Shown: one piece after another, positions 21,117 to 60,247 of the stretch
How positions within the stretch are numbered: position 1 is the stretch's first letter
Layout of the letters: every line of letters starts with the position of its first letter
Source of the DNA: a virus
Taxonomy: Duplodnaviria > Heunggongvirae > Uroviricota > Caudoviricetes
Direction: 5' to 3' (one strand)
Length of the DNA stretch: 64,000 nucleotides
IMG/VR virus record: IMGVR_UViG_3300038393_001148
Program-made: the position numbers and the translations under genes
The notes under the pieces: generated by a model
Seen by the model: the letters and a program-made list of their open reading frames with translations, nothing else
Databases searched by the model: none
What the model was told of the DNA's origin: nothing

Positions 21117-21240
21117 ACATACAGGCATTGTCTAAACGTTACTGTTGGGCGGGAACCCAACAGAGCGGTCCCAAGGATGTAATTCCCTTGGAAGCGTGTT
21201 ACGTGACAAGAGGCGCACCTTGGAGGCGGTGCCTGTATGT
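21117..21240 (+). ncRNA. Unclassified structured RNA E (124 nt), related to RNA A
   Basis: 11-bp closing stem ACATACAGGCA/TGCCTGTATGT; hairpins CTGTTGGG/CCCAACAG and CCAAGG/CCTTGG. Confidence 0.6.
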
Positions 21241-21251
21241 CTCGTTCCCGA

Positions 21252-21323
21252 GCCCGGATAGCTGAGTGGTGTTAGCACCTGCCTTACAAGCAGGAGACGT
21301 AGGTTCGATTCCTACTCTGGGCA
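21252..21323 (+). tRNA. tRNA-Val(TAC)
   Basis: Cloverleaf, loop CTTACAA. Confidence 0.9.
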
Positions 21324-21324
21324 T

Positions 21325-21516
21325 ATGGCAAAGAAAAAGCAGGGATACGGAACCAAGTGCGATAAGTGCGAGGCCAAGCTCGGCGATGTCGAGATGAAGC
21401 GGGGCAAGCCGGTGCTGATTGATGGGAAACCGGTCAAGATCCCGATCTTCTCGTATGCCCGCGAAATCGGCGGAAAGTGCGAGACTCGCTGCCTCAAGCA
21501 CTTGACATCCAAGTGA
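21325..21516 (+). CDS. Small basic Cys-rich protein
   Basis: ATG 1 nt after tRNA-Val; CDKC...CETRC. Confidence 0.65.
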   Translation: MAKKKQGYGTKCDKCEAKLGDVEMKRGKPVLIDGKPVKIPIFSYAREIGGKCETRCLKHLTSK

Positions 21517-21535
21517 GCCTTGCTAGGCTACGCAT

Positions 21536-21757
21536 ATGAGTCATCCCGTGTTCATCTCTATCGGCCCCAAGAAGGTTGATACGGAGATCATCAAGAAGGC
21601 GATTAGCCTGAAGGAGAAGGATCTAGGTCGCCATCTCACTTCGACCGAGATTCTTCAGACGATGGGCGAGGTCTACGAGCCGGATGCGTCAAAGCGCACC
21701 TTCATCTCCTCCCGACCGCCCTCAAAGATGCCCAAGCTACACCTGCCGAGGTCTTAG
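21536..21757 (+). CDS. Hypothetical protein
   Basis: 73 aa ORF. Confidence 0.55.
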   Translation: MSHPVFISIGPKKVDTEIIKKAISLKEKDLGRHLTSTEILQTMGEVYEPDASKRTFISSRPPSKMPKLHLPRS

Positions 21758-22007
21758 TATGTGGAAAACTGTTTGGAATGTCATTTCGCTGCTCGCGTTC
21801 GCGCTGAGGTGGTGCGCGGACACGCTGGGCGAGGCCCAGTACTGGGCCTGGGAAAAGGCGGGCAGCCCTGGTGCCCAGGAATCATAACTCACTCTTCCGG
21901 ACCTACATGAGCCATCAGAAACGGGAGGATCTGTACACGTACTACAGATCATGGGGTCATAGTCGCCTCTTCTCCTGGTGGATGTCTCGCAGGTACGGAC
22001 AAGATTA

Positions 22008-22080
22008 GGGCCACTAACTCAGTTGGTAGAGTATTCGCTCGACACGCGAAAAGTCACTGGTTCGAGTCCAGTGTGGCCCA
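22008..22080 (+). tRNA. tRNA-Val(GAC), atypical C33
   Basis: Cloverleaf, loop TCGACAC. Confidence 0.8.
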
Positions 22081-22083
22081 CTA

Positions 22084-22186
22084 GGGAAGTCTATCTACAA
22101 CCGGTTGAACATATTCCTCCACTGGAAATAGTTACCGTGGTACGCCGCGAGGCGGTCAGACTGGAATCTGGCAGGTAGAACTTCCC
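22084..22186 (+). ncRNA. Structured RNA candidate (103 nt)
   Basis: Closing stem GGGAAGT/ACTTCCC, 3 nt after tRNA-Val. Confidence 0.45.
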
Positions 22187-22195
22187 AACCTTGTC

Positions 22196-22380
22196 ACAAT
22201 CACCATAACAAGCCCCAAAGGCGAGATGCATACTTTGTAAGGCCACATTGTGAGAGGCTAATGCAGACAAAGTATGCATCTCTGATCTTTGTACGGTCAA
22301 CATTAGTTGCGACGCTTCTTTGGAGCAAAGTTGTGTGTGGTGAGTACGCATAAGCGGTCAGGCGGGAACCTGGCGATTGT
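22196..22380 (+). ncRNA. Structured RNA candidate (185 nt)
   Basis: Closing stem ACAATCACCA/TGGCGATTGT (9 of 10 pairs); internal perfect 16-bp helix 22223-22238/22267-22282. Confidence 0.5.
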
Positions 22381-22387
22381 AGTACAT

Positions 22388-22935
22388 GGGGAGGACAGGC
22401 ATCGATTCGGTTCGACAACCTATCCACCTAGTTGTAGCGGTATGAGCACACCTACAGGCTCAAAGCCATAACTGGCGCTGATACTCATCAGTTCGCTCTC
22501 GCTGCCTAACCGGTAGCGAAAAAGCCGGGCCGCTGGAAGCCTGGGAACAGAACACCAGCGAGGTTAGAATCCTCCTGTGATCCGCAGAAGATCTAAGGTC
22601 CTCGACGCTGCCGCACTGGCGGCAGCGTAGGTGACTGAGCGCTCATAACGCTCGATTCGAATGGATAGCGACCAAGGTTTGGTGCCGACGCCTACTTTTA
22701 CCGGAGGGCCATCCTTGCAAGCAGAATTCTTCCGGTGTAGCCGGGAGTGGGTTGCTGAGACCTTAGGTAAATAGAATTCAGACAGTGCTAAGCGGACTCG
22801 CGATGTAAAGGCCCTTCCAGAAGGGAACGACCACCTCTCCGGCACGCACAGATAGCGAATTAGCACAGCAGTACAAGCTACTAGAAGACTAGAGATAGTG
22901 AACTGAAGACGAGGGTTCGAATCCCTCCCTCTCCA
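22388..22935 (+). ncRNA. ssrA: tmRNA, 548 nt, with an inserted domain
   Basis: Acceptor GGGGAGG/CCTCTCC-A with G3.U70, TPsiC arm, pk1, tag frame 22474-22509 (GADTHQFALAA*) after ATAACT. Confidence 0.93.
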
Positions 22936-22937
22936 CT

Positions 22938-23043
22938 TGGGATAGATGACACCGACTCCACGGTAGATAAGGGAGCACGGCTCTATGGCCGGTCAGGCAT
23001 TAGGTGATGCCGCACCTTTCGCAAACCCCGCCTCACTATCCCA
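22938..23043 (+). ncRNA. Structured RNA candidate (106 nt)
   Basis: Closing stem TGGGATAG/CTATCCCA, 2 nt after tmRNA. Confidence 0.5.
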
Positions 23044-23051
23044 TTCACTTG

Positions 23052-23267
23052 GAAGGACGGCCTGCGACACATTCTGTGGTTGAATTCCACAAGCGAAGTG
23101 TCGATACCCAGACCCGGCTTGAAAACCGGGAGCAAAGGCGGAAGACCCAGTGACAGAGCACCAGGCCTGCAACCTGGAGGTCGCCGGTTAGAGTCCGGCC
23201 GAGGGCTGGCCCTCGTAGCTCAGTGGTCCGTGACTAGCTGACTTTTATGCCCGACGAACGTCCTTCA
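23052..23267 (+). ncRNA. Structured RNA containing a circularly permuted tRNA-like domain
   Basis: Closing stem GAAGGACG/CGTCCTTC; order is D-3' strand, anticodon arm, T arm, acceptor hairpin, D-5' strand. Confidence 0.65.
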
Positions 23268-23283
23268 AATTTTGCCGCAGGAT

Positions 23284-23358
23284 GCCCGAATAGCTTCAAC
23301 TGGATAGAGCGCTTCCCTCGTAAGGAAGAGGTTATGGGTTCGAGTCCCATTTCGGGCT
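23284..23358 (+). tRNA. tRNA-Thr(CGT)
   Basis: Cloverleaf, loop CTCGTAA. Confidence 0.9.
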
Positions 23359-23373
23359 TACGCCCTACTGCTG

Positions 23374-23446
23374 GGCCCCATAGCTCAACGGTCAGAGCGC
23401 TTGTCTTATACGCAAGTGGTTCTAGGTTCGAATCCTAGTGGGGCTA
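23374..23446 (+). tRNA. tRNA-Ile(TAT)
   Basis: Cloverleaf, loop CTTATAC, acceptor GGCCCCA resembling Ile2. Confidence 0.85.
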
Positions 23447-23453
23447 CCTACTT

Positions 23454-23526
23454 GCCCTTATAGTGAAGATGGATATCACGAGTCCCTCCTAAGGACTAGT
23501 CACGGGTTCGAGTCCTGTTGAGGGCG
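23454..23526 (+). tRNA. tRNA-Arg(CCT)
   Basis: Cloverleaf, loop CTCCTAA. Confidence 0.9.
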
Positions 23527-23534
23527 CTAAATCT

Positions 23535-23902
23535 TAACGCAGCACGAATGGAAGCTAAGTTCCTCTTAGCAGGTGCAGGACTGCGAAGCATCGGACCTTG
23601 GAATCGATGTGGAGTCACTGTTTCTCAAAGTCTGGTTAGAATCCGGCTGCTTTGAAGGGAAGGTGAGTAGGCTCAAATACTCTCACTTTCCCGAAGGTGA
23701 TCTGTGACCATTAAAAGGTGAGCGGAATCCCAGATCGCATGCAATCTGTCCGCAAAGGAGTAGGGAGAGGTGAATAAAGGCGCTAGTAGGGTCGGTTTAC
23801 CGACTGCCGAACGGTCTTTACGACCCTGTAGTACTCGACCGAAACCCGGAATCCGAGCTAGGGAATTTGCTACTCCCTTGACTGACTCGGCGCGCTGCGT
23901 TA
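23535..23902 (+). ncRNA. Large unclassified structured RNA (368 nt)
   Basis: Closing stem TAACGCAGC/GCTGCGTTA; several long helices; T-loop-like hairpin; no convincing ORF. Confidence 0.6.
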
Positions 23903-23912
23903 CTCTTGCAAT

Positions 23913-24341
23913 ATGCTGCTACGACGCATTCATCGCAATGCGCTCTCGTGGGTCAACGAAGAGCGGGCCTTGGCTGGACTGGACCCGATAGGCGACTTCC
24001 CAACGGGATTTCGCGGGGGTGATGCCAACCCCATCACGAACGCCTTGGGATCTCATGAGCGCGAGGTCGCCCCGAAGTTAGACGAGGCCATAAAGGAAGC
24101 GGAGGCGGACCCGCTCGGAGCGGCGTTAGAGGCTGCGGTTATTCCTAGCCCCATGTCGGCCTTCTTTTGGTTTGCGCTCTTTACGGTTGGGTTCTATCCC
24201 AAGTACGACCAGGCCAAGATGTATGAGAGGCTTCCGCCAAAGCGCCGTGCCCTTGTAGCAAGGAGGCTGCGGAACCTACCAAGCGATGCGCGAGAGCGGT
24301 ATTACCGCGTAGAGCAAGTGGTAAAAATGCTGAAGGAATAA
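23913..24341 (+). CDS. Hypothetical protein
   Basis: 142 aa ORF ending at the 5' end of tRNA-Ser. Confidence 0.65.
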   Translation: MLLRRIHRNALSWVNEERALAGLDPIGDFPTGFRGGDANPITNALGSHEREVAPKLDEAIKEAEADPLGAALEAAVIPSPMSAFFWFALFTVGFYPKYDQAKMYERLPPKRRALVARRLRNLPSDARERYYRVEQVVKMLKE

Positions 24342-24427
24342 GGAGAGGTGCCTGAGTGGTCGAAAGGGCTCGCCTGCTAAGCGAGTGTAGTTAATACCTA
24401 CCAGGGGTTCGAATCCCCTTCTCTCCG
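24342..24427 (+). tRNA. tRNA-Ser(GCT)
   Basis: Cloverleaf, long V arm, loop CTGCTAA. Confidence 0.92.
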
Positions 24428-24428
24428 C

Positions 24429-24457
24429 TTGACACCTGAAACGAAGTACGATAGGCT
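24429..24457 (+). promoter_or_regulatory. SigA-like promoter, near-leaderless
   Basis: TTGACA-N17-TAGGCT, ATG 6 nt later. Confidence 0.7.
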
Positions 24458-24463
24458 GAAGAT

Positions 24464-24925
24464 ATGAAGCTCGGAGAAGCACTAACATTACGAAGCGACC
24501 TAGTGTCGCGCTTGGGTGAGGTACGCAACCGTATCTCTTCCAACGTCCTGGTCCAGGACCAGGAGCGGCCAGCGGAGGACCCGAACGCCCTCATCGAGGA
24601 GCACGGAAACCTCTGCGATGAGCTTGAGAGCTTGGTCACCAAGATCAACCTCACCAACTCCCAGACGCGCCTTCCCTCCGGGGAGACGCTGACGGAGGCC
24701 CTCGTCAAGCGAGACGTGTTCGCCCAGCGTCTCAACGGCCTGCGGCAGGCGGCGCAAGCTGCCGATGTCACCCACGCCCGTCGCTACTCCCTCTCGGAGA
24801 TCAAGATGGTTCCGACCATCAAGGTTGCCGATCTCAATGAGGAGATCGATGGCTTGGCGAAGCAGCGCCGTCAGCTTGACACGGCGATCCAGGCCCATAA
24901 CTGGACCACGGATCTAGTAGAGTAA
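24464..24925 (+). CDS. DIP1984 family protein
   Basis: MKLGEALTLRSDL...VQDQERPAEDP...TLTEALVKRD...RYSLSEIK...IQAHNWTTDL matches the family pattern as I recall it. Confidence 0.8.
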   Translation: MKLGEALTLRSDLVSRLGEVRNRISSNVLVQDQERPAEDPNALIEEHGNLCDELESLVTKINLTNSQTRLPSGETLTEALVKRDVFAQRLNGLRQAAQAADVTHARRYSLSEIKMVPTIKVADLNEEIDGLAKQRRQLDTAIQAHNWTTDLVE

Positions 24926-25158
24926 GTTAGTTGGTAGTCGTAAAGTAGCGAATGTCAGGGCTGACTATGCGCCTTAAGCTAGTCCCATCGGAGACCCGAA
25001 ATCTCGCCTCCCCGCTGCGCGAAGGGAATAAGTTACCGTTCCGCGCCAACCGGGTACAGATGATCGTCACCGTTCATAAGTTACTACCAGACATTGAACT
25101 TTGCGATGAGGGATGGCATTACCCTGTAGGTAATGCCGGGTTCGGGGACTTAACTTAC
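24922..25158 (+). ncRNA. Structured RNA overlapping the DIP1984 stop codon (237 nt)
   Basis: Closing stem GTAAGTTA/TAACTTAC; TGGTAGT/ACTACCA; AATGTC/GACATT; 9-bp hairpin GGCATTACC/GGTAATGCC. Confidence 0.55.
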
Positions 25159-25163
25159 AACGA

Positions 25164-25237
25164 CGCGGGATAGTGGAAGCATGGCGCCACGCTAGCCTCA
25201 TAAGCTAGAGATCTGGGTTCGAATCCCGGTCCCGCTA
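25164..25237 (+). tRNA. tRNA-Met(CAT), initiator-like acceptor
   Basis: Cloverleaf, loop CTCATAA, C1:U72 mismatch, no 3GC anticodon stem. Confidence 0.85.
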
Positions 25238-25238
25238 C

Positions 25239-25311
25239 GCCTTCTTAACTCAATTGGCAGAGTAACTGACTCTTAATCAGGAGGTTCTGGGTTCGAGTCC
25301 CAGAGAAGGCA
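25239..25311 (+). tRNA. tRNA-Lys(CTT)
   Basis: Cloverleaf, loop CTCTTAA. Confidence 0.9.
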
Positions 25312-25313
25312 CT

Positions 25314-25485
25314 TAGACGGTACGAAAGAGTTGCCCGTTACAAAACGGCTGGAAACAACGGGACATCCAACCTCAGAGCGGTTAGAATCCGCCATTCTAG
25401 GGCTTAGCGGCCCTACGTGCCTTAGCGGGCATAAGAATAAGGGAAATCGAGAGGTGCGAGCCGAAACACCCTCGCGCACCGTCTA
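25314..25485 (+). ncRNA. Structured RNA candidate (172 nt)
   Basis: Closing stem TAGACGGT/ACCGTCTA, 2 nt after tRNA-Lys; GCGG-TTAGAAT-CCGC and TAGGGC/GCCCTA hairpins. Confidence 0.55.
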
Positions 25486-25549
25486 TCTATAATAACTTCG
25501 GAGCCGAGATCGAAGCGGCCAACTCTGACCCGGAGTCTAAATGGGTAAT

Positions 25550-25623
25550 GGGTGATTAGCTCAGTTGGTGAGAGCGCTCGTCTGATAAGCGAGAGGTCCC
25601 TGGTTCAAGTCCAGGATTGCCCA
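25550..25623 (+). tRNA. tRNA-Ile(GAT)
   Basis: Cloverleaf, loop CTGATAA. Confidence 0.93.
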
Positions 25624-25625
25624 CT

Positions 25626-25720
25626 AGAGGACCGGTCGATGGATAAGTTCGAACTATTCCATCCCTCAGACACAAGCGGCCATGCTGTTGTCTGCGTATG
25701 AACTGGCGACCGCATCCTCT
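25626..25720 (+). ncRNA. Structured RNA candidate (95 nt)
   Basis: AGAGGA-CGGTCG/CGACCG-TCCTCT closing helix, 2 nt after tRNA-Ile; two internal hairpins. Confidence 0.5.
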
Positions 25721-25728
25721 TAATCTAC

Positions 25729-25901
25729 TGATCCCATGGGTCAGCCTGTTCTCGCCAGGGAAATTGCCTACAACTGTGTGGCGATATGTTTGTAGGAAGC
25801 CGCCCTCCCACGCCAGGGGCCAGAATAGCGGCAGCGAGAAACTTAACTCACCAAGCCCAACCTCTATTGGTAAGAATAGAGTAGTATCCCTTACCGGATC
25901 A
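25729..25901 (+). ncRNA. Structured RNA candidate (173 nt)
   Basis: TGATCC/GGATCA ends; TTCTCGC/GCGAGAA internal helix. Confidence 0.4.
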
Positions 25902-25966
25902 ATGCGAAAATCCTCCATGTTGGCATGGTCGCGGGAGCAAGGATTGGAATCCGAGGCTCCCACCAA

Positions 25967-26038
25967 TGGTGGGTGCTCGATAGGCAAGAGAACGGACTGT
26001 TAATCCGCTGCATGTGGGTTCGAATCCCACCCCACCAG
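25967..26038 (+). tRNA. tRNA-Asn(GTT)
   Basis: Cloverleaf with short D stem, loop CTGTTAA. Confidence 0.8.
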
Positions 26039-26046
26039 CTAATGGT

Positions 26047-26124
26047 TTCACAGTTGTCAGCACAGGTTGACTCCCTGTCAGGAGAAATTTGGCCCTCCGT
26101 CTGACTCAAAGACCTGACTGTGAA
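26047..26124 (+). ncRNA. Small structured RNA candidate (78 nt)
   Basis: TTCACAGT/ACTGTGAA closing stem. Confidence 0.35.
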
Positions 26125-26194
26125 CTTATCTCATAGATATTCGGTAATCTGACAAGGAGGTAGTGGTTAAGTTCGAACTGTAGCGAAGTAACTT

Positions 26195-26266
26195 GGCGGG
26201 GTGGCGGAATGGCTTACGCACGGGTCTGCAAAACCTGTTATACGGGTTCGATTCCCGTCCTCGCCT
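26195..26266 (+). tRNA. tRNA-Cys(GCA)
   Basis: Cloverleaf, loop CTGCAAA, U73. Confidence 0.9.
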
Positions 26267-26268
26267 CT

Positions 26269-26460
26269 ATGCAGTTGCTTACTATCGAAGAATTTCATGC
26301 ACTACCCGAAGGTACCGAGCTAATCTCAATTCTTGATGAGGTCAAGATCAAGGGCAGGGATTATATCGATCTTGACACCCGCGCCGGGTTGATAGCTTGG
26401 TATGTTCGAAAGCTACCTGAGCCTACGCTTGCGGACAGTGAATGGATCGATAATAGTTGA
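26269..26460 (+). CDS. Hypothetical protein (63 aa)
   Basis: ATG 2 nt after tRNA-Cys. Confidence 0.6.
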   Translation: MQLLTIEEFHALPEGTELISILDEVKIKGRDYIDLDTRAGLIAWYVRKLPEPTLADSEWIDNS

Positions 26461-26463
26461 CTT

Positions 26464-26550
26464 GGAGGGTTGGCAGAGTCCGGTTTAATGCAACGGTCTT
26501 GAAAACCGTCAGGTGTCACAGCCTCCTGGGTTCGAATCCCAGACCCTCCG
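26464..26550 (+). tRNA. tRNA-Ser(TGA)
   Basis: Cloverleaf, long V arm, loop CTTGAAA. Confidence 0.92.
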
Positions 26551-26553
26551 CTT

Positions 26554-26674
26554 GGGGCGAATGGTAAGGTAGCCCGTCAATTCGTGGCGTCCGGTGTCGT
26601 TCGAGCCGACGTTAAACATATGGATGCAAATAGGGTAGTTCCCGCCTACTTGGGTTCGAATCCCAAGCGCCCCA
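26554..26674 (+). ncRNA. tRNA-like RNA with an expanded anticodon arm (121 nt)
   Basis: GGGGCG/CGCCCC-A acceptor, TTGGG-TTCGAAT-CCCAA T arm, GCGTCC/GGATGC stem with a 29-nt loop. Confidence 0.55.
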
Positions 26675-26707
26675 TCTGCGGAGTCAAGGTTCCGTACCTT
26701 AATATGT

Positions 26708-27253
26708 ATGAACCTCCGCTGGGCCGCTTTCCTTGATGCGCTAGAAATTATCGTTCGGTACAGTTCGGTTCTCCTTGCTGTAGGATTATTGACCTGGGCC
26801 GTTTCTTCTATCACGGTTAACAAGAAGACACAAGAGATAAATCGCATTGTTCGCACTATCCAGGAAGCCAAGCGTGGACCTCGGGGTGAACGTGGTCCGT
26901 CTGGACCTCAAGGATTGCGAGGCCGCGAAGGTGCGGTTGGACCGAGAGGCGTTCAGGGTCGGACGGGCGCTAGCGGCCCTAGAGGACAGAGGGGTCCACA
27001 GGGCGCACAGGGCCAGCGAGGTGCCGAAGGGCTTCGGGGACCCCAGGGTGTACAGGGCGCTACAGGAAAAACTGGAGCAACTGGTCCCGAAGGCCCTCGC
27101 GGTGAGCGAGGCCCAACTGGCGCTCAAGGAGCTACGGGGCTACGCGGCCCTCAAGGAATCCCTGGAGTCCAGGGCCCGTTGGGACCTGAAGGGCCGATTG
27201 GCCCACGAGGACCAATCGGTTCGGTCACTTGTCAGGTTTTACAAAGCTGCTGA
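26708..27253 (+). CDS. Membrane-anchored collagen-like protein
   Basis: N-terminal TM helix followed by about 38 Gly-X-Y triplets. Confidence 0.85.
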   Translation: MNLRWAAFLDALEIIVRYSSVLLAVGLLTWAVSSITVNKKTQEINRIVRTIQEAKRGPRGERGPSGPQGLRGREGAVGPRGVQGRTGASGPRGQRGPQGAQGQRGAEGLRGPQGVQGATGKTGATGPEGPRGERGPTGAQGATGLRGPQGIPGVQGPLGPEGPIGPRGPIGSVTCQVLQSC

Positions 27254-27303
27254 AGGCGGTGTAGTAAAGCTGGAGTTAAGTGGATGGATTATCCAACGCT
27301 GAG

Positions 27304-27376
27304 GGCAACTTAGCTCAGTTGGTAGAGCGGCAGACTGAAAATTTGCGCGTCACTGGTTCGAGTCCAGTAGTTGCCA
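27304..27376 (+). tRNA. tRNA-Phe(GAA)
   Basis: Cloverleaf, loop CTGAAAA. Confidence 0.92.
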
Positions 27377-27389
27377 TCGACTTACACAT

Positions 27390-27462
27390 GCCGGGTTGGT
27401 CTAGCGGTTAGGACGCCTGTCTTTCACACAGGAAATCACGGGTTCGAACCCCGTACCCGGTA
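27390..27462 (+). tRNA. tRNA-Glu(TTC)
   Basis: Cloverleaf, loop CTTTCAC. Confidence 0.92.
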
Positions 27463-27564
27463 CTTACTCCCAACAGTGAAAGTCGCCTTGCCCGGCTTGT
27501 CCTAGGAAAGCTCCGGGCGAACAAGAAGTAGCAAAGCCCTGATTGTGGGCAGTTTCCGATCTAC

Positions 27565-29197: not shown

Positions 29198-29533
29198 ATG
29201 AGAGTCCGCGCTGTATACACCCTCAAGTCCTTTGCCGAACTAAAGGATGCTCTTGAGTACGCCAAGAGCATCAAGGCGGGAGCGGGAAGCCATGCGGACG
29301 CTGAGCTAGAGATTGAGTTCGATAAGAAATCAAAGAAGCTCGGATCCCTCGGCGGCAAAGGACTCACAGCGATCTTGCCCACCTCACCTCCAGAGGAAGA
29401 GGAGTCAGCGCTTCCCTGGAAGGTGGTCGTGGTCAACGAGGATCCGGTGCCCGGAGGAAGTCCCTGCGCCGAGTGTGACCAGCCCCATTTCGAGGAAGAC
29501 TTCCTCTGCTCTGATTGTCGAGCCGCCGCATGA
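29198..29533 (+). CDS. Zn-ribbon tag protein (member 3)
   Basis: CAEC-x7-DFLCSDCR. Confidence 0.75.
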   Translation: MRVRAVYTLKSFAELKDALEYAKSIKAGAGSHADAELEIEFDKKSKKLGSLGGKGLTAILPTSPPEEEESALPWKVVVVNEDPVPGGSPCAECDQPHFEEDFLCSDCRAAA

Positions 29534-29820
29534 TCTTCTACAAGACCCGTACGGTGCAAAAGGGTAAAGAGCTTCACGACATCGAAGCTGTGAAGAAACG
29601 TTTGAAGGAAATTCACGACCATCCTAAGTCGGCTTATCACAAGGCGCTCAAGGAAAATCGTATTATGGTGTGCTACGACCAGAATCGCGCCACGCGGGGC
29701 AAATATGACATCATCGAATTCACCGAGGTCGAGCCTCCGGGCTCCTCGGTTTGCGGAGGTTGTCAGAAGAGGTTCTTTAGCCTAGAAGAAGACTATCTAT
29801 GTCCGAAGTGCCGCTCCTGA
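29530..29820 (+). CDS. Zn-ribbon tag protein (member 4)
   Basis: CGGC-x9-DYLCPKCR; ATGA overlap with member 3. Confidence 0.75.
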   Translation: MIFYKTRTVQKGKELHDIEAVKKRLKEIHDHPKSAYHKALKENRIMVCYDQNRATRGKYDIIEFTEVEPPGSSVCGGCQKRFFSLEEDYLCPKCRS

Positions 29821-32606: not shown

Positions 32607-32765
32607 ATGTCAGTCTTACTTTGGATACTCGGTATTATCCTCGTCATATTTGGCTTCTTCTGGATTCTCGGAGGATCGCTGCTATATGGCATCATCGCCA
32701 TTGTGATAGGCCTACTCCTAATGGGCTATCTCGGCGGTGGGTTTGGATATACCCGACGATTGTAA
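32607..32765 (+). CDS. Small two-TM membrane protein (52 aa), resembling actinobacterial GPGG-motif proteins
   Basis: Manual translation MSVLLWILGIILVIFGFFWILGGSLLYGIIAIVIGLLLMGYLGGGFGYTRRL; GAAAGGA SD. Confidence 0.65.
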   Translation: MSVLLWILGIILVIFGFFWILGGSLLYGIIAIVIGLLLMGYLGGGFGYTRRL

Positions 32766-33260
32766 TCATCAGGGCAACCGTATGCAGTAACTTGGGCTCC
32801 CGAGAGGGAGCCCTTGTTATTGAGGAAAGTCCGGACACTGCGCGAGCCACTGAGGCTGGAACCTCAGCAGGGACGGGTAACAATGGAGGGAGATCGCTGT
32901 CGTCCGTACCCCTTAAGTGGGACGACTTAATGCTCATGTGGGAGCGGCGTCACTTGTACCTCAGCCGACAGTCAAGCGGTGCAACCTCAAGCTGGTCAAG
33001 GGCATGACCTAGGTAGAGGGCAGTCCTTCGGGACCAACGCATTGGTAGTAGAAGATACGATCCACAAATTAGCTACACGTCATTGGCTGCGAACGGCCAC
33101 TCCGGTTACTAAGAGTGGGATGACGGGGCCAGGGTGGAGAATCGGGAATCCCTGGATGCGTTGAGATGGATATACGGATCGCAGGTAGTAATAGGTAGAG
33201 GCAGGCATCACGTCGCTACCTAGCGTGTAGAACAGAATCCGGCTTAAAGCCAGATGATTA
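32763..33260 (+). ncRNA. rnpB: RNase P RNA (divergent, about 498 nt)
   Basis: P4 strands GAGGAAAGTCCGG (32822) and ACAGAATCCGGCTTA (33232); P1 TAATCATC/GATGATTA; P2 CCGTAT/ATACGG. Confidence 0.88.
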
Positions 33261-33276
33261 CTGACACGTAAGTGTC

Positions 33277-35116: not shown

Positions 35117-35255
35117 GTAACCTATCCTAGGGGCCGGAACCCTGATGATGGTCGGGTTGCTGCCTGAGTAGCTCAGAAATTGTCACCAGACGGAGCGAGC
35201 CGGAACTCGCATTGATGTCTGTAATGAGAGCGGCAGAACTTATCCTGTAGGTCAC
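35117..35255 (+). ncRNA. Structured RNA candidate (139 nt)
   Basis: GTAACCTA/TAGGTCAC ends (7 of 8 pairs); two CCGGAA hexaloop hairpins. Confidence 0.45.
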
Positions 35256-35284
35256 GGTCTGACGAACCGTCTCGGGCGACACTT

Positions 35285-37894: not shown

Positions 37895-38302
37895 ATGCAC
37901 GTCTCACTAGTGACTGCGGCCATTGTGGTAGCCGCAGCCGCTCCGCATGGAGCGAAGTCCCACAACGGCTGCAATACGCAGGCCTGCACGGCTCGTGTAT
38001 GTCAGACCGTAAGCTGTAAGACGCGCGTTCAGTCCAAGAAATGGATTAAGCTACAGCGCGCCCTCCCCGCGTCCACTAAGGCGATGCTCGCCCGACTGCG
38101 GGGCTGTGAAACACGAGGGATTCCATTCCCTACAAACTATCGTTATGACGGGCATCATGACGGGGCCTATCAGTACGATGGGCCTACCTGGCATGAGGCC
38201 GGTGGCTGGGGATATGCCTATCAGGCGAGTCCTGCGGAACAGGATGTACGGACCGCTTGGTTCTACCCATCCCACCGTGGCCGTTGGGAGTGTGTGGCTT
38301 GA
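37895..38302 (+). CDS. Secreted Rpf-like (resuscitation-promoting factor) transglycosylase
   Basis: Signal peptide; LRGCE...GAYQYDGPTW...ASPAEQD...W motif of the Rpf domain. Confidence 0.75.
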   Translation: MHVSLVTAAIVVAAAAPHGAKSHNGCNTQACTARVCQTVSCKTRVQSKKWIKLQRALPASTKAMLARLRGCETRGIPFPTNYRYDGHHDGAYQYDGPTWHEAGGWGYAYQASPAEQDVRTAWFYPSHRGRWECVA

Positions 38303-38327
38303 CAAAGTGACTAGCACCTGATAAGGT
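38299..38327 (+). promoter_or_regulatory. SigA-like promoter
   Basis: TTGACA-N17-TAAGGT. Confidence 0.7.
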
Positions 38328-38577
38328 TCCCCATAGAGCAAGAGGTAGCAATCGAACGATGTCCCTCACGCAGCGGCGGTCGTTGGCCTGGTACCGGGTC
38401 GCTTAAATGCTTACGACGACACCGGCTGAAGATACAAAGCGGTTTCGCCTGCCCGCCGAGATATACGGTTCGGCCCTCTCACCTAGTAACGCCCATTCCG
38501 TCACTTGGCGGGAACCAAGGATAGACGAATTAGTCTGGGCCTGAAGAGTAACCGAGAAGGAGTCCAGCGATATCAAG

Positions 38578-38603
38578 AGGCCCGCCTAGTGCGGGCCTTT
38601 TTC
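38578..38603 (+). terminator. Rho-independent terminator
   Basis: AGGCCCGC-CTAGT-GCGGGCCT followed by TTTTT. Confidence 0.8.
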
Positions 38604-38630
38604 TTTGCCTGATCGGGCTGATAAGAGGCG

Positions 38631-39371
38631 ATGGCCTTTGTGAGTCCGAACATGTCTTTGAAAGTATGGAATTCGTCCCAGGATTCATACGATCACGAGC
38701 AGTTAGCAGATAATTTCCTCAAGCTCGACCAGCATAACCACACGATGGGCCAGGGAGCCCAGATTCCTACGGGTGGTATCGCCGATGGATCGATCACGGT
38801 AGCTAAGCTCGCCGGGGATACCCTTTCCGCCATCGGGACTGGTATCCCTACGGTGACCTCCCTGCCGGGCTCTCCCGTTGATGGACAACAGGTTTACTTC
38901 ATAGCCGACAACACCAAGGGTGTAATTTGGCACTTGAGGTATCGAGCGGCTAGCTCTTCTGCGTTCAAATGGGAGTTTGTTGGCGGGCCTCCGATTCGTA
39001 ACGGACTCGGAAGTGTAGTCAAGGTGGCGACTACCGCCTATGCCCAGATGTCCCTAGCAATCTCGCTAGTTGCCCCGTTGTCCGGCGACTATGAAGTCCA
39101 ATTAACGGGGAACAGAATTCAGAATAACGCTGTTGGCGTGGCAGTATATGCATACCTAGTTTCTACGGGAGCGGGGGACGCCACGGGTGACAATGACATG
39201 GCGTACGCCTTGATCGGCCAGTTTCAGTCGGCTCCGTTAGCGGTACGAAGCGCATTAACTGGTGTGACGGGAGGAAACACCATCGATGCGAACGTTGCCC
39301 ACGGGGATATTACCTCCAGCGTGTCGTATAAGGGTCTACGTTTGACCGCTACTCCCGTGAGGGTCGGATAA
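38631..39371 (+). CDS. Virion fiber/tail-associated protein, paralog 1
   Basis: N-terminal ~60 aa shared with the next two genes; beta-rich C-terminal domain. Confidence 0.65.
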   Translation: MAFVSPNMSLKVWNSSQDSYDHEQLADNFLKLDQHNHTMGQGAQIPTGGIADGSITVAKLAGDTLSAIGTGIPTVTSLPGSPVDGQQVYFIADNTKGVIWHLRYRAASSSAFKWEFVGGPPIRNGLGSVVKVATTAYAQMSLAISLVAPLSGDYEVQLTGNRIQNNAVGVAVYAYLVSTGAGDATGDNDMAYALIGQFQSAPLAVRSALTGVTGGNTIDANVAHGDITSSVSYKGLRLTATPVRVG

Positions 39372-53750: not shown

Positions 53751-53949
53751 CGAATCGGTCAAGCCCGATGATGTCGAGGAGTGCCGCTGTTGCAAGAACG
53801 CCAGGATCAACGAGGGCAAGCCTGCCCGTCTCCTCTTCGCGGTCAGCATGAAGGGCCTTCCTGATTATCTTCTCTGCGATTTTTGCGACGGAGACGCCCT
53901 GCGCATGGCGAAGGACAAAGAAGCAAAGCGCATGGCTTCGGGCGAGTAA
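53740..53949 (+). CDS. Small Cys-rich protein
   Basis: CRCC...CDFC. Confidence 0.55.
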   Translation: MNPDESVKPDDVEECRCCKNARINEGKPARLLFAVSMKGLPDYLLCDFCDGDALRMAKDKEAKRMASGE

Positions 53950-53956
53950 ATAATGA

Positions 53957-56305
53957 ATGTTGCCCGAAGTTCACGAAGTTGCCGGTAGGGGAGAACACAG
54001 TCGCCCAGGGCGACCCATTCTCTACTATCCTCACGCGCGCCAGGTCTACCTAGGACCGGAGGGTTGGTATCACCAACAGATGATGCTGGCTCATACGTAT
54101 AACCACGGCAAGTCCCTCCCTCCGGGGGAGCCTATGCGTGCGGTCTTGCATCAGGATGGCTATCTCGACACGTACGATGAGGTGCCCGAGGAGGTCTCTA
54201 CGGTGCTAGAGCAGCATACCGGCCTTCCCGTCAACGCCACGCCGCCTCAGTGGCGCACCGACAACAACTTGTGGAAGGAAGCCGATCTCGTTGGTGACGC
54301 TTTCCCCGGCCAGGAGCCTCAGGCTATCGCCGATCAGGCTGTAGCGCCGGATCGACACCGCGACTGGAATCCGACCCAGGAATACAAGTTCGTATATGCC
54401 AACGGCCAGCTTCATGTCTCAGAAGAGCATGAACATGAAGAGCTATTCGGTCATGCTGGCGTTCCCGACCTGACTCAGCACGCCGGTCCTATGGCGGTTG
54501 GACATATCCACGTAGACATGGGCAAGGCCACCTTCGAGATGGACTCCAACATCGGAGCCCAGGCCATCGCCCGTGTGCTCAAGGACTATGCCAAGCAACA
54601 GGGCTGGCGCTGGGGTGGGATGACGGACGCGAGCGGAGAGCCGGTTGGCACCGGATCGGAGTTCGCCCCGGTTAAGAGCTACTACTTCTCCTGCGTAAAT
54701 CAAGGACCTGCCACCGAACAGGAGCTAAGAATTGCAAGTAAGCGTCTTAATTCGTCCTTCAATGGCGTTGTCCACGTCGATCCTCCCTACGCGGACGCTC
54801 GTCCGCTTACGCGCGAGAACTACGCTGCGCTGAAGGAGTTCGCCGACGACCGTGGCTTACAGTTGGTGGCCGGTAATGATAATGTCCTTAAGAAGATCGA
54901 AGACCTAGAACAGGGCAATACATACAGCCCAGAGTGGAATGACGAGGATGACCATTTCACGATGCAGAGCCCCAAGGACGAGCGCCAGCCTGGCGGCGTC
55001 TACAAGTGCCCTCACTGCGGTCAGATCTTCCACTCATGGGGAATTTATCTACGCCATCGTTCCGAGGAAGAGCCTCCAGGAGACGAGTCCCCCGAGACCC
55101 ATGTAGACGAGTTTAGGAACATGGATGTTCCGATGCCTCCGCATTTCCATGACCAGCCCTCGTTTACCGAGGCGAAGCTGGCTCAAGATCTCCCACGGGT
55201 CGTTGATCTGCAAGAGGACGACTTCAACGTTCCTCCTACCAAGGATTTCAAAAACTATGGTTGGCGTAGGCCGGTAATTTATTACCCTGAGCATAACGTG
55301 GTTGGGCTTGGCCCTCATGGTTCTTATCATTGGGACGTGCATGACACCATGCGCAACTTGCATCACGACTTAGGGCGCGATTATCGTGGGTGGGTTTCCG
55401 TCGAGCCTCATGAATATACGCATCCAAGTGAGATGGATCGTCCGAGAGGATTTCATATGAGACAGGGAGACAACGCCATGATTCATGGTGTCCAACAGGC
55501 TCTCATTCCTCATGTGCCTGAGGCGCAGACCTATATTGCCAACCCTCACGGTGGAGATTCTGAGTGGATCACCGGCAAGGTGGCAATGGAGATCCCGAAG
55601 GTGATTAACATTACCGACGCTGACGGAGGGATGCAGAATGATCAGGCTAACTACGGTTGGCGTCGTCCCGTGCTGTACCACCCGGCAACAGATACTCTAG
55701 CCATCGGACCTACTGGGGCCTATCACTATAACCTCGTACATGCTTTGCAGGATCAAGGCTATCGTGGACAGGGCCTACAGCATTTCGATGAGGGATGGGT
55801 CTCTGTGGCGGAACCCCATCCTGAAGCGTATGATCAGGATCGTCCGCGAGGCTTTCATATGAGGTATACCGAGGCCACTACGGGACGACTCCAACAGGCG
55901 CTTATTCCTCACGCCCCGGAAGCTGCAAATTACATCGAAGACCCTCACGATGAGGATAGTATGTGGATGACCGGCAAGGTTGCAGTGTCGGCTCCCCAGG
56001 CCAAGGATCTCATACAAGCCGCGATCCCGTTCATCTATGACATCGACAAGGACACCATAGATGTAGGACAACCGGGAATGCGTACCTCCGACATCCCCGG
56101 ACAGTTCACCCCCGGAGGCATCGTGGAAGGACGTTATGAGCCAGGCGGCAAGGTATTCATCACGACGATGACCAATATGCCTTGGACGGCTCGCCATCTT
56201 CTAGAGTTATGGTACTACCAGTTTCCTCACATGGAAGTCCGCAGTCTTAATCTAGAGGATTCTGAGGGCAAGCGCACGAAGTTGGCAGAGTGGCAAGATG
56301 CTTGA
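53957..56305 (+). CDS. Modular protein: repeated PxxY-G-H domains plus a C2H2 zinc finger
   Basis: At least four copies of the repeat; YKCPHCGQIF...H. Confidence 0.7.
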   Translation: MLPEVHEVAGRGEHSRPGRPILYYPHARQVYLGPEGWYHQQMMLAHTYNHGKSLPPGEPMRAVLHQDGYLDTYDEVPEEVSTVLEQHTGLPVNATPPQWRTDNNLWKEADLVGDAFPGQEPQAIADQAVAPDRHRDWNPTQEYKFVYANGQLHVSEEHEHEELFGHAGVPDLTQHAGPMAVGHIHVDMGKATFEMDSNIGAQAIARVLKDYAKQQGWRWGGMTDASGEPVGTGSEFAPVKSYYFSCVNQGPATEQELRIASKRLNSSFNGVVHVDPPYADARPLTRENYAALKEFADDRGLQLVAGNDNVLKKIEDLEQGNTYSPEWNDEDDHFTMQSPKDERQPGGVYKCPHCGQIFHSWGIYLRHRSEEEPPGDESPETHVDEFRNMDVPMPPHFHDQPSFTEAKLAQDLPRVVDLQEDDFNVPPTKDFKNYGWRRPVIYYPEHNVVGLGPHGSYHWDVHDTMRNLHHDLGRDYRGWVSVEPHEYTHPSEMDRPRGFHMRQGDNAMIHGVQQALIPHVPEAQTYIANPHGGDSEWITGKVAMEIPKVINITDADGGMQNDQANYGWRRPVLYHPATDTLAIGPTGAYHYNLVHALQDQGYRGQGLQHFDEGWVSVAEPHPEAYDQDRPRGFHMRYTEATTGRLQQALIPHAPEAANYIEDPHDEDSMWMTGKVAVSAPQAKDLIQAAIPFIYDIDKDTIDVGQPGMRTSDIPGQFTPGGIVEGRYEPGGKVFITTMTNMPWTARHLLELWYYQFPHMEVRSLNLEDSEGKRTKLAEWQDA

Positions 56306-59171
56306 GATCAAACCGGTACAGGACCATGGGAACTTTGACTATTCCCATGGGACGAACGACTTCCCGTTCATCTATGATCAGAAGACGCACGAGGTCCATG
56401 TCGGCCCACGCAATACATATCATACACATGTCTTTCCACAATACAAGTATGGGGATCCAGATGTGTACATGGGCCGAGCCGATGACGGTGCCACTGGTGG
56501 CCCCAGCGCTCGGGCAGCGGATGGCAGCGAACCCCACATCTACTGGTATAGATCGCCTCACCCCAGCGAGCAAGGAGAAGTAGAACACGTCCTTGGTCAG
56601 CATCTTGGGGTCGAAACGTTTCACAACCCTTGGGCTTCAGTAGATGAAGGCCTTTGGGCTGAGGCCAAGGTGTCTACCGACCTAGCACAAATTGAAGAGG
56701 TAAACACGGACCTCTATCCTGAGAAGATAGAGGATCAATGGACGCCTGATCGCAGGGCGCTCATCTACGATCACGGTCTCAACCGTCTGTTTGTCGGAGG
56801 TCCGGGAAGCTCCCATAGACAGGTATACGAGCATTTTGATAAGGTGCATCCGGACTGGGATCCCGACCACATTCTTGAGGGCAGCATCGACAAGAATGGA
56901 TCTCGATTCTGGGATGATGGTTATGTGGGCGTCCATCCCGCAAGGGCGTATGCCGCCATTAAGGAGCGATACGGGGTGAATCCCGATCCTTCTGCTGATC
57001 AATGGAGCGACGAGAGCCTTTGGTCTGAGGCTTCGGCCGCTAACCGGGTTGACGAAACAACGCCCGCTAATGGGCATTATGTAGATTCAAAGGTCGCAGC
57101 GGGTTGGCAGGATTGGGAGGAGGGTTGGGACCACCCGGATCTCAAGGATTACCCCGCTGACGGGATGCCGGATTTTAATGTCACCCCCGGCAACCCCAAT
57201 CTCCCTCTTTACCGATACGTCCACGTAGAGCACAACGACCCAGAGATTGATCGCCTCATGGAACAGGGTCAGCATTCGGATGCGTTTGAACGAATGATGC
57301 CCTACATCGCGGGAGATAGAAATCCTGACTGGGCAGGACACTCTTTAAAGAATCTAGGCATGCATTGGACTCATGATCCCTCATTGCCGCGTTTCATAAG
57401 TAACCAGAATAGTAATGGCGCAGGATCGCACGGAGTAATCCTCCGCGCTGAGCATCCCGGTCTTGAGCACACGATGAGTTGGGATAACCCTCAGGACGCC
57501 AAGCTTCTGCATAGCACGGTTTTTGGAGGCCCTGATGCGGGGGTTCATCCGGAAGTCGCGGTTCGTCCCAACGCCCCGATGAACATCAATTCCGCTTATG
57601 TTATGGACGATCAGGATAAGTGGAATAAGGTCCCGATCCGTTGGGGCCATTTCGCCAATAGACATGCAAACATTCTGGATCCTGTCCACGATACGCTTCC
57701 TCCCCTTGTATGGGACGAAGCGGGAAGTCCTACACCTAAGCTCAAGCCCCATCACAACGAGTGGATCACTCGCGAGATTCACGCGCTATGTAAGCAATTC
57801 CACCCGGACCCAGAAAAGTGGCTACGCCTCGTCCTCACGGGATCGCTGACCACCTACCAGTACAGCAACACGTCCGACTGCGATGTCTCGCTGTTTATCG
57901 ATCCGCACTTCCTCCCCGAATGGAGCCGAGGCAAGTTAATCGGGTTGATGATCAAGGGCCTTGACGGGATCAAGCTTCCTGGCACCCCATACGAGATGCA
58001 GGGCTTCGTCGTGGCGAAGACCATCTCCGCTGCCGATCTTTATCAGCCCGGCCTTCGGGCGGGCTACGACTTGAGCACCGACGAGTGGCTCGTTCCTCCG
58101 GACAAGAGCCGCTCCCACGATGTGGCCCGCGAATATAACTTGGACTACATCTACGCCCTGGAGTCCGCCGACAAGATGGAGCGGCTGCTCCGCTACGACC
58201 CGGACACGGCGGTCCGCTTCTGGCACCAGATCCACCACCGCCGCATGAGGGATCAGACCGCTGGCAAGGGCGACTTCTCGCAGGCCAACATCGTCTACAA
58301 GATGCTTAACAATCGGGGCCTCTTCCCGGCGATTGAGCAAGCCTCCGGGGAACATATTGCGGCGCTTGATCATCAAGCCGTTCTGCTCCAAAACCAGGGT
58401 CAAAATCTTCAGGGACTTCCCGGACAGATCAACATGCCCGGTTATGGCCCACTCCAATTCCATAGCCACAGCGGCATCCAGAACGTTGCTAGTAGCTATG
58501 CCCAGTCTCGCGGGTTGCCGTACAACCGCCCTACGGACTATCGTAGGGTCGATCCCGCCATGGCGGCTGCGGTTGCCTCTGAATACGACAGGATGCCTCA
58601 TAACCCGAACGACCCCCAGGTGAAGGCGTCCTACGATGCGCTCAAGCGGGAGACCCTCGACCAGTACAATCATGCGGTGCAACACGGATACAACTTTGAA
58701 TTCTATCCACAAGGACATGATCCTTATCCAGATTCTCCCCGCCAGGCCGTCCTAGACTTACACCATAACAAGCACATGTATGTATACCCGACGCATGACG
58801 GGTTTGGATCGAGCGATGACGTACCCACCGACCATCCTCTTCTAGAAGACACGGGCCTCAAATGGGGTGGAAGGCCTGTCACCTACAATGATGCCTTCCG
58901 TGCCATCCATGATTTTTATGGACACGCCAAGGAGGGTCTAGGATTCCGCGCTGATGGCGAAGATAACGCCTGGCAGCAGCATGCTGCGATGTTCTCACCA
59001 TTGGCTCGCCCGGCGATGACGACTGAGACACGAGGCCAAAATTCATGGGTAAACTTCGGCCCCCATGGGGACCATAATCGCACGGCGACACAGGACACGA
59101 CGGTCTACGCTCCTCAGAAAGCTGGTATCATGCCTGAGTGGACGATGGACCCTAACTTGCATACATCATGA
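56298..59171 (+). CDS. Polyvalent-type protein: two repeat domains, ART-like, nucleotidyltransferase and HDxxGH domains
   Basis: LYRY..GMHWTHD..PEV; LTGS..SDCDVSL; AIHDFYGH..GEDNAW..TETRGQNSWVNFGP. Confidence 0.7.
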   Translation: MLEIKPVQDHGNFDYSHGTNDFPFIYDQKTHEVHVGPRNTYHTHVFPQYKYGDPDVYMGRADDGATGGPSARAADGSEPHIYWYRSPHPSEQGEVEHVLGQHLGVETFHNPWASVDEGLWAEAKVSTDLAQIEEVNTDLYPEKIEDQWTPDRRALIYDHGLNRLFVGGPGSSHRQVYEHFDKVHPDWDPDHILEGSIDKNGSRFWDDGYVGVHPARAYAAIKERYGVNPDPSADQWSDESLWSEASAANRVDETTPANGHYVDSKVAAGWQDWEEGWDHPDLKDYPADGMPDFNVTPGNPNLPLYRYVHVEHNDPEIDRLMEQGQHSDAFERMMPYIAGDRNPDWAGHSLKNLGMHWTHDPSLPRFISNQNSNGAGSHGVILRAEHPGLEHTMSWDNPQDAKLLHSTVFGGPDAGVHPEVAVRPNAPMNINSAYVMDDQDKWNKVPIRWGHFANRHANILDPVHDTLPPLVWDEAGSPTPKLKPHHNEWITREIHALCKQFHPDPEKWLRLVLTGSLTTYQYSNTSDCDVSLFIDPHFLPEWSRGKLIGLMIKGLDGIKLPGTPYEMQGFVVAKTISAADLYQPGLRAGYDLSTDEWLVPPDKSRSHDVAREYNLDYIYALESADKMERLLRYDPDTAVRFWHQIHHRRMRDQTAGKGDFSQANIVYKMLNNRGLFPAIEQASGEHIAALDHQAVLLQNQGQNLQGLPGQINMPGYGPLQFHSHSGIQNVASSYAQSRGLPYNRPTDYRRVDPAMAAAVASEYDRMPHNPNDPQVKASYDALKRETLDQYNHAVQHGYNFEFYPQGHDPYPDSPRQAVLDLHHNKHMYVYPTHDGFGSSDDVPTDHPLLEDTGLKWGGRPVTYNDAFRAIHDFYGHAKEGLGFRADGEDNAWQQHAAMFSPLARPAMTTETRGQNSWVNFGPHGDHNRTATQDTTVYAPQKAGIMPEWTMDPNLHTS

Positions 59172-59629
59172 CTCACTGGGAAGAAGATAATCTAGAAGAG
59201 CCTCTAGTCGAGGTTAATACGCATGCGCGAAGGAAGACGAAGACTCCTCCGCACACGGGCTCGTATAAGCCGCGCGTGTTGTTCAATAAGTTTCGGCCCG
59301 AGAGTATGCATCCTAAGGGTCCGGACGGATCGGAGATGCCGTTTATCTACGATCCCGCAGATGGCATAGTCCATCTTGGCCCTCCCGAGGCTTACCATCA
59401 CGAACTTATCGCGCGTACGCCCGAGCTAAAGACCCAGTATCCGCCGCTCACCAAAGCGCCCTTCCTGGAACGCCCCGAGCATGTCCACGGCCGGATGACG
59501 TGGCCGGGCAAGCAAACCGTGGTCTTCGGGGACCATACCCCCGAGCGCATCGCGGAGCTAAATGCGGCCCTGGGCTCCACGCCTAAGGAAAATCCTGCGC
59601 TGGCCGACGACGACCTCTGGCAAGATTAG
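59168..59629 (+). CDS. Single-copy PxxY-G-H repeat-domain protein
   Basis: PFIYDPADGIVHLGPPEAYH. Confidence 0.7.
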   Translation: MTHWEEDNLEEPLVEVNTHARRKTKTPPHTGSYKPRVLFNKFRPESMHPKGPDGSEMPFIYDPADGIVHLGPPEAYHHELIARTPELKTQYPPLTKAPFLERPEHVHGRMTWPGKQTVVFGDHTPERIAELNAALGSTPKENPALADDDLWQD

Positions 59630-59631
59630 CC

Positions 59632-59660
59632 TTGACATCCTAAGCTGAGCCTGCTAAGGT
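59632..59660 (+). promoter_or_regulatory. SigA-like promoter
   Basis: TTGACA-N17-TAAGGT. Confidence 0.7.
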
Positions 59661-59664
59661 GGTC

Positions 59665-59950
59665 GCCGTCGCAGATCTCTGCGATATTCACTTATGCGGA
59701 TCTTCCTGACAACCGGCCCGTTCAGACTTTCCTGGATCGAAACTACAGTTTGGTTTCTCCAGCAGGAGTCGGAACGGAGAGGCGGGAACCTCGTTGAAGT
59801 TCAACGGGCCTCTAACCTAATTGGGCCATGGGTGCCCGTAAGAGGCTCGCCGGGTCAGTCTGACCTAGCTTTGATTTTGAGTGACTATTGTGTATTCTTT
59901 GGGGTTAGGATAGTGCAGGGCGGGAACCCTGCGGCCCTCGTATTTGATGA
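59665..59950 (+). ncRNA. Structured RNA candidate (~290 nt)
   Basis: Follows a promoter; GGCCCGTT/AACGGGCC helix; two GGCGGGAACC hairpins; no credible ORF. Confidence 0.45.
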
Positions 59951-59961
59951 TAACGAAGTAC

Positions 59962-60010
59962 CCTGTGGTTTATCTGTTTGTCGCTATCCACTTGACAGAT
60001 AAACCACAGG
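59962..60010. repeat. Perfect 16-bp inverted repeat overlapping a promoter
   Basis: CCTGTGGTTTATCTGT-N17-ACAGATAAACCACAGG. Confidence 0.85.
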
Positions 60011-60020
60011 CTGGTATCTT
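59992..60020 (+). promoter_or_regulatory. SigA-like promoter
   Basis: TTGACA-N17-TATCTT. Confidence 0.65.
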
Positions 60021-60247
60021 GAAGGAAGGTCGGCCTACCTTAACAGCCCTCATGTCCTAGCTCATGAGTATATATTACGTTCCGGGTACTAGGTGCCGGT
60101 GTCTGAGACGAGAGGGGCGGGAACCCCGTAACGTTTGGTTCCTTATATGAGTCATTCGTTAGACCGCTCAGGCTAAGGGTGAGACCATACTGAGCCTCAA
60201 GCTCTGCCACTAAATTAGGCATCTGGAGAAGTATGGTACATAGCCGA

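Follow-up and report, generated by a model that had tools for sequence, protein, structure and literature searches.

A CNGGAA hairpin loop recurs on the non-coding RNAs of one clade of large phages and is a putative protein-binding site

Why should one and the same six-base loop cap different stems on different RNAs of a phage? The tRNA islands of phages are rich in unexplained structured RNAs, and the loop described here links unrelated RNA families across a whole clade. The stretch of DNA that was analysed (the window, 64,000 nucleotides) is a portion of a large uncultured phage whose longest contig, from JGI sample 3300037419, measures 165,085 bp; it contains 39 tRNA genes together with a tmRNA-like and an RNase P-like RNA, both of which score under the Rfam gathering thresholds. 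Its DnaE is nearest (~30%) to those of large actinophages, and from the sequence we infer an actinobacterial host.

A first-pass annotation of the window had drawn attention to the 10-mer GGCGGGAACC, a word much rarer by chance than it is in fact. The six exact copies that it listed are all present (21148, 22361, 38507, 59781, 59919 and 60116); all of them are on the + strand and the count on the - strand is zero. Dinucleotide shuffles of the window give an expectation of 0.19 and never reached six copies, and on the + strand Markov models of orders 1–5 predict 0.09–0.31, so that the comparison of both strands with a Markov background, which the annotation had proposed, finds the word on one strand only and far above expectation. 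Once the words of the tRNA D- and T-arms are set aside, GGCGGGAACC is the most frequent 10-mer of the window. The stems beneath the six copies measure, in positional order, 8, 6, 5, 4, 7 and 4 bp, exactly the range of 4–8 bp that had been claimed. The copies were also said to lie outside confident coding sequences, and this holds: the 102-codon open reading frame (59694-60002) that surrounds those at 59781 and 59919 has no homologue in the syntenic relative. As for the variants of the word, the positions 32854 and 35198 were right and one given as 35131 starts at 35132.

What did not stand was the choice of the 10-mer as the motif. The true unit is the CNGGAA hexaloop, whatever stem it caps, and the longer word had missed a tenth hairpin, closed by an A-U pair, with its loop at 22161. 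All ten CNGGAA hairpins of the window are inside non-coding RNAs (ncRNAs): six in the tRNA island, one in a small RNA (sRNA) ahead of the tail genes, and the remaining three in a second island (59.6–60.4 kb) that has two sigma-70-type promoters. They occur in 8 of the 23 candidate ncRNA segments of the window, with at most two sites per RNA. The hairpins and their carriers are as follows.

about 21117-21240, + strand: structured RNA between tRNA-Thr and tRNA-Val, carrier of the hairpin at 21142-21163
21142..21163, + strand: hairpin, 8-bp stem, loop CGGGAA, closing-pair probability 0.99
22155..22172, + strand: hairpin, loop CUGGAA, A-U closed, the final hairpin of the closed-stem RNA 22084-22186
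22357..22374, + strand: hairpin, loop CGGGAA, at the 3' end of the RNA 22196-22380 directly upstream of the tmRNA
32763..33262, + strand: RNase P-like carrier RNA (Rfam RF00010, 25.4 bits, E 4.4e-4; the gathering score of 100 is far above this)
32850..32867, + strand: hairpin, loop CUGGAA, within the RNase P-like RNA
35130..35143, + strand: hairpin, loop CCGGAA, 4-bp stem atop a longer interrupted helix just past tRNA-Gly, weak in folding
35161..35277, + strand: tRNA-mimic carrier, a cloverleaf whose D-loop is expanded, anticodon loop 8 nt long and T-loop aberrant, called by neither ARAGORN nor Rfam
35195..35210, + strand: hairpin, loop CCGGAA, tipping an arm in the D-loop of the tRNA mimic, its constrained fold at most 1.1 kcal/mol above the free one
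38299..38606, + strand: promoter TTGACA-17-TAAGGT and predicted sRNA of ~270 nt with intrinsic terminator, kept in five relatives
38504..38519, + strand: hairpin, loop CGGGAA, within a segment of the pre-tail sRNA that varies, disfavoured in the long-context fold
59632..59990, + strand: promoter TTGACA-17-TAAGGT and candidate sRNA with two hairpins
59779..59792, + strand: hairpin, loop CGGGAA, 4-bp stem, closing-pair probability 0.89
59914..59933, + strand: hairpin, loop CGGGAA, 7-bp stem, with a competing long-context fold
59992..60345, + strand: promoter TTGACA-17-TATCTT with the island's second candidate sRNA; a separate promoter at 60352 serves the next gene
60114..60127, + strand: hairpin, loop CGGGAA, 4-bp stem, with a competing long-context fold

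The syntenic islands of 15 related phages were retrieved via two marker proteins; eight of these phages have the hairpin, in 22 copies, and with the ten of the window this makes 32. In every one of the 32 the bases C1, G3, G4, A5 and A6 are invariant; position 2 is G in 20, U in eight, C in three and A in one, and the closing pair is G-C in 25, C-G in five and A-U in two. As a non-circular test, each CNGGAA in the tRNA islands was counted and then scored for stem capping. In the islands of the clade 28 of 150 sense occurrences cap a stem, as against 2 of 100 antisense; the outgroup islands have 0 of 54, and the rate for all hexamers is about 0.8%. CNGGAA comes out at the top of all hexaloop classes for sense-strand stem capping (p ~1e-30). 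None of its 15 single-base variants, with 0–3 stem-capping cases per 72–159 each, rises above background, and CNGGN pentaloops (9 sense, 9 antisense) are without enrichment. A scan of ~43 kb of mostly coding sequence for stems of at least 4 bp with at least 3 Watson-Crick pairs found no stem-capping CNGGAA on either strand; since chance would give no more than about one, this does not amount to depletion. On the transcribed strand the CNGGAA loop is subject to sequence-specific selection; a stem is needed and its sequence is free.

Three further matches were rejected: one at 15370, antisense within a gene and on a wobble-rich stem; one in a relative (L134:13857) that has a competing GAAA hairpin; and the loop at 22531 in a tmRNA hairpin (22525-22561) that contains CUGGAA, where the loop has 8 nt and is complementary to a segment ~25 nt downstream, a probable pseudoknot. 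No CNGGAA hairpin was seen within tmRNA or a decoding tRNA.

The stems pair in the register of a hexaloop, and position 2, often C or U, cannot close GGAA as a tetraloop; C1 and G4, both being invariant, show no covariation with each other. Folding in long context gives closing-pair probabilities of 0.86–0.99 for five of the window hairpins, and disfavours those at 35134, 35200, 38509, 59921 and 60118 (0.00–0.17). These latter have competing folds, and their formation thus rests on the local stems and on analogy with the others.

The RNAs that carry the hairpin are of several kinds, namely the RNase P RNA (the phage's own tRNA-trimming ribozyme), the arms of tRNA mimics, stand-alone sRNAs and simple rod hairpins, and an Rfam search returned no family for them beyond weak tmRNA, RNase P and YrlA matches. 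In the RNase P RNA it is borne by the helix that follows the P4 5' strand, in the window and in relatives L134, L135 and L149, on four unrelated stems that are all paired beneath the same loop, which bears out the earlier observation that the stems differ yet stay paired. The corresponding hairpin of L133 (6802) and L147 (11862) has a different loop of 10 nt (C...AAGA), of which the islands of these two phages have no convincing second copy; L123 has the CNGGAA hairpin in a P3 insertion instead, and the RNase P RNA of L121 is without it. There are in fact two types of RNase P RNA in this one clade: those of L121 (5493-5845) and L123 (1469-1956) retain recognisable specificity-domain strings, and those of the window, L133, L134, L135, L147 and L149 have a remodelled region in their place.

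Most of the tRNA mimics with the hairpin have aberrant T-loops. The hairpin tips an arm inserted in the D-loop in mimics of the window (35200), L132, L134 and L121, occupies an anticodon-arm position in a mimic of L121, and lies in an expanded internal domain in one of L149. The D-loop-expanded mimics that resemble the one at 35161-35277 are L132:6805-6917, L134:10787-10920 and L121:264-404. In four phages it forms the final hairpin of a closed-stem RNA located upstream of the tmRNA; L126 and L134 have a counterpart of the hairpin at 22357..22374 upstream of the tmRNA, as does L147 in the related RNA, and the hairpins with loops at 22161 and 22363 are paralogues. The closed-stem family between tRNA-Val and the tmRNA (window 22084-22186, L126:575-856, L147:4148-4415) has a terminal helix in common and variable interiors. 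The pre-tail sRNA (window 38335-38606, L121:8140-8350, L123:4705-4925 and equivalents in L133, L134 and L135) has a terminator, core words common to the relatives and no Rfam family; a clear CNGGAA hairpin is present in one of the six, that of the window, and the five relatives conserve the sRNA without one. In these comparisons the position of the hairpin is interchangeable, and its carriage patchy, between orthologous RNAs.

In the marker tree all the phages with the hairpin fall within a single clade (support 100/98), and this implies a single origin, the relatives not being independent gains. Within this clade L133 has no hairpin in the examined part of its island, and G001 (107 kb) has seven in ncRNAs and one weak match elsewhere; six of the seven are in its tRNA island and the other is in a promoter-driven sRNA, syntenic to window 59632..59990 and different in sequence. 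The near-complete outgroup phage G003 has three scattered matches, consistent with the control rate of 0.11 hairpins per 10 kb per strand. This rate was derived from 115 loci that a loose pattern of RNase P plus loop picked up in viral contigs and that were judged to be chance. There is no CNGGAA hairpin in the six outgroup islands, nor in the ncRNA regions of phages Colt and Jay2Jay. An RNase P pattern specific to the clade brought up G001 as the sole viral contig and had no match in prokaryote genomes; of the 65 loci that matched an 18-mer hairpin pattern, none had an ARAGORN tRNA, and nearly all look like chance. The sequence comparisons thus strongly support an RNA-level, sequence-specific hairpin loop common to many ncRNAs, and this clade-wide motif is real and apparently undescribed: a search of titles and abstracts found no relevant paper on a CNGGAA or CGGGAA RNA loop. 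To our knowledge, CNGG-type loops are known only as eukaryotic SAM targets.

The family concerned, that of the Smaug recognition element or CNGG(N)n loops, is bound by the SAM domains of Vts1, Smaug and ZCCHC14 and includes HBV SL-alpha and HAV stem-loop Vb (PMC2275152, PMC9282228). In its fold C1 pairs with G4 over a G-C closure (PMC2275152), and animal viruses recruit ZCCHC14 via loops of this type (PMC9282228). Like these loops the phage one starts with CNGG, has extra 3' bases and a stem of free sequence, and it prefers the G-C closure of their CUNG-like fold; a recruitment role of the kind considered below would resemble the way in which animal viruses bring a host protein to their RNA. 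It differs from them in being borne by phages, in a bacterial setting, and on ncRNAs rather than in mRNA UTRs. Moreover, CNGG(N)n loops tolerate different 3' bases and work as pentaloops, whereas the phage loop is strictly a hexaloop with A5 and A6 invariant and its variants at background, and no SAM-domain partner was found for it (the family is absent from the listed Pfam matches of the window proteins). We regard the CNGGAA hairpin as a candidate protein-binding hairpin of the CNGG class, with a mechanism modelled on that class: C1 would pair with G4 above the preferred G-C closing pair, and N2 would be left free, with G3, A5 and A6 available for read-out by a reader presumed to act in trans.

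On balance we think that the CNGGAA hexaloop is probably a binding site for one RNA-binding protein, displayed on the stable ncRNAs of the clade. A fixed loop on a free stem, an interchangeable position, patchy carriage and a range of one clade make up the pattern that would be expected of a trans site read by a protein. The first-pass annotation had left the choice open between such a site and a tertiary docking loop. We favour the former because neither a complement in cis nor a shared receptor was found and because the position shifts between orthologous RNAs: complements to the loop occur in cis in 3 of 31 cases against 3.0 in the control, so that a pseudoknot partner is rejected, and no receptor word is common to the flanks of the hairpins, a test to which helical receptors are invisible. 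The idea that the loop marks an RNA regulon found no support, every copy being at least 85 nt from the nearest start codon.

The most serious competitor, which we consider less likely, is an element made of RNA only, in which the 3' adenines pack as a docking loop into G-C helices, whether of the same molecule or of another RNA, or the loop serves as an unusually stable cap, and which was spread by module shuffling. A-minor docking into G-C helices requires no conserved receptor word, CNGG loops closed by a G-C pair are similar to the thermostable CUUG fold (PMC2275152), and the paralogous copies at 22161 and 22363 fit with module shuffling. The rules of folding are universal, however, and yet the loop is missing from the six outgroup islands and from Colt and Jay2Jay; the plain CNGGN pentaloops are as frequent antisense as sense; and the hairpin tops simple rods and long arms that offer little docking surface in cis. 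GNRA tetraloops are likewise recurrent on unrelated structured RNAs, and the phage loop ends in AA as do the GNRA docking loops, their purine-A ending being shared; unlike them it is forced by its register into six bases, has an invariant C1 and no receptor that we could find, and is confined to one clade. The hairpin of RNase P sits on a fixed helix where other RNase P types have docking loops, but RNase P tolerates a different loop there, or none.

A site of the CsrA/Rsm family with shifted specificity, the RNAs being a dispersed sponge for a host or phage variant of CsrA, would be a special case of the protein-read site, and an improbable one. The CsrA/RsmE hairpin and the sponge sRNAs RsmZ and RsmX (PMC4005645) share with the phage loop GGA at positions 3–5 of a stem-borne hexaloop (32/32), a free second base, which is the ANGGAX geometry, and several copies on ncRNAs, and some phages encode CsrA alleles (PMC7366521). 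The high-affinity site A(N)GGAX, however, requires A at position 1 and accepts no substitution in its core bases (PMC4005645), and C stands there in 32 of 32 phage hairpins. Position 6, variable for CsrA, is a fixed A; the closure is mostly G-C and not C-G; ANGGAA caps a stem in merely 2 of 155 cases; and the 1–2 sites per RNA are spread over many RNA families, with no mRNA ribosome-binding site as a target or anywhere near. The phage sequence covered by the search yielded no csrA, either above cut-off in relatives G001-G004 or among the strong Pfam matches of 75 window proteins. By its position 1 the hairpin falls outside the CsrA/Rsm family, though by analogy it may work in the manner of a dispersed sponge. 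We give equally little credit to a co-transcriptional signal, whether an antitermination site or a processing mark, that would help the transcription or cutting of the tRNA operon, which is long and poorly translated. Six copies are spread along this operon of 17 kb and several lie 21–31 nt from the end of a tRNA or tmRNA, and like Lambda nut boxB they are phage RNA hairpins defined by the sequence of the loop on a variable stem; unlike boxB they have no fixed promoter-proximal position, the distance to the nearest -35 box ranging from 58 to 7177 nt, and are embedded in mature stable RNAs. Four copies are on short stand-alone candidate RNAs with their own promoters, the gene that follows the 59.6–60.4 kb island is likewise served by a promoter of its own, and other copies are buried within RNase P RNA. 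An operator or extruded hairpin at the level of DNA, suggested by the repeated 10-mer and by some copies at 58–290 nt from promoters, is largely refuted. An abundance on the minus strand or DNA-operator behaviour, named in the annotation as what would speak against an RNA motif, did not appear: the hairpins keep to the sense strand, with free and compensated stem sequences, in eight relatives, and within folded RNA genes they occupy structurally sensible sites. Outside the Watson-Crick core of the stems G-U exceeds A-C (14 versus 6), which leans to a fold of the + strand RNA and is weak evidence if taken alone.

If the loop is read by a protein, whose protein is it? That the loop acts as a decoy for a host protein, or recruits one, seems to us possible and a little more likely than a tag role with a phage protein as its reader, a more tentative proposal, the split between them being weak. 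Patchy carriage and a copy number that varies from phage to phage suggest that the total dose matters, and favour the decoy or recruitment role, in which the summed number of copies would count for more than the identity of the carrier RNA; sites at 1–2 per RNA are few for a sponge, and this counts against the protein-read site as we picture it. A host reader would mean a new bacterial RNA-binding specificity, possibly that of a defence or regulatory factor titrated by phages. A phage reader would instead protect, gather or package the RNAs, and the hairpin would then be a natural counterpart of the laboratory tag in which a hairpin is added to a tRNA scaffold. We also mention, as a rather speculative version, that the loop may serve as an address label for a protein encoded by the phage, perhaps a clade-restricted zinc-ribbon miniprotein: a multivalent reader might bring sRNAs, tRNA mimics and RNase P together in a single RNP system, and protein tethering could take over part of the RNA-based substrate recognition of RNase P. 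Zinc-ribbon miniproteins are present in all the clade islands examined and in none of the six outgroup islands, a co-occurrence with the loop that is confounded because it follows ancestry. Two of the conserved ones (29198-29533 and 29530-29820), modelled with pLDDT 76–77, gave only generic small folds (best Z 5.6 and 3.9).

Several minor observations concern the same islands. The window has ten zinc-ribbon miniproteins between 28209 and 36059. The untagged outgroup phage L136 has a Ro60 (TROVE) protein in its tRNA island (8347-9771), with none listed in the tagged islands. In an unrelated GC-rich phage (L210:5264-5356, IMGVR_UViG_3300044256_000027) a CNGGAA hairpin abuts a tRNA-like gene in a promoter-driven non-coding stretch; as one among the 65 pattern matches it may be chance. 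In L135 a tRNA-like gene with a UUA (stop-reading) anticodon (2945-3015) lies 22 nt downstream of a CNGGAA loop. Finally, right after the terminator of the pre-tail sRNA, the window (38607-38633) and its relatives have a conserved A/T-rich box 5–8 nt ahead of the tail gene's start codon; it may be a late promoter from which a leaderless mRNA is made.
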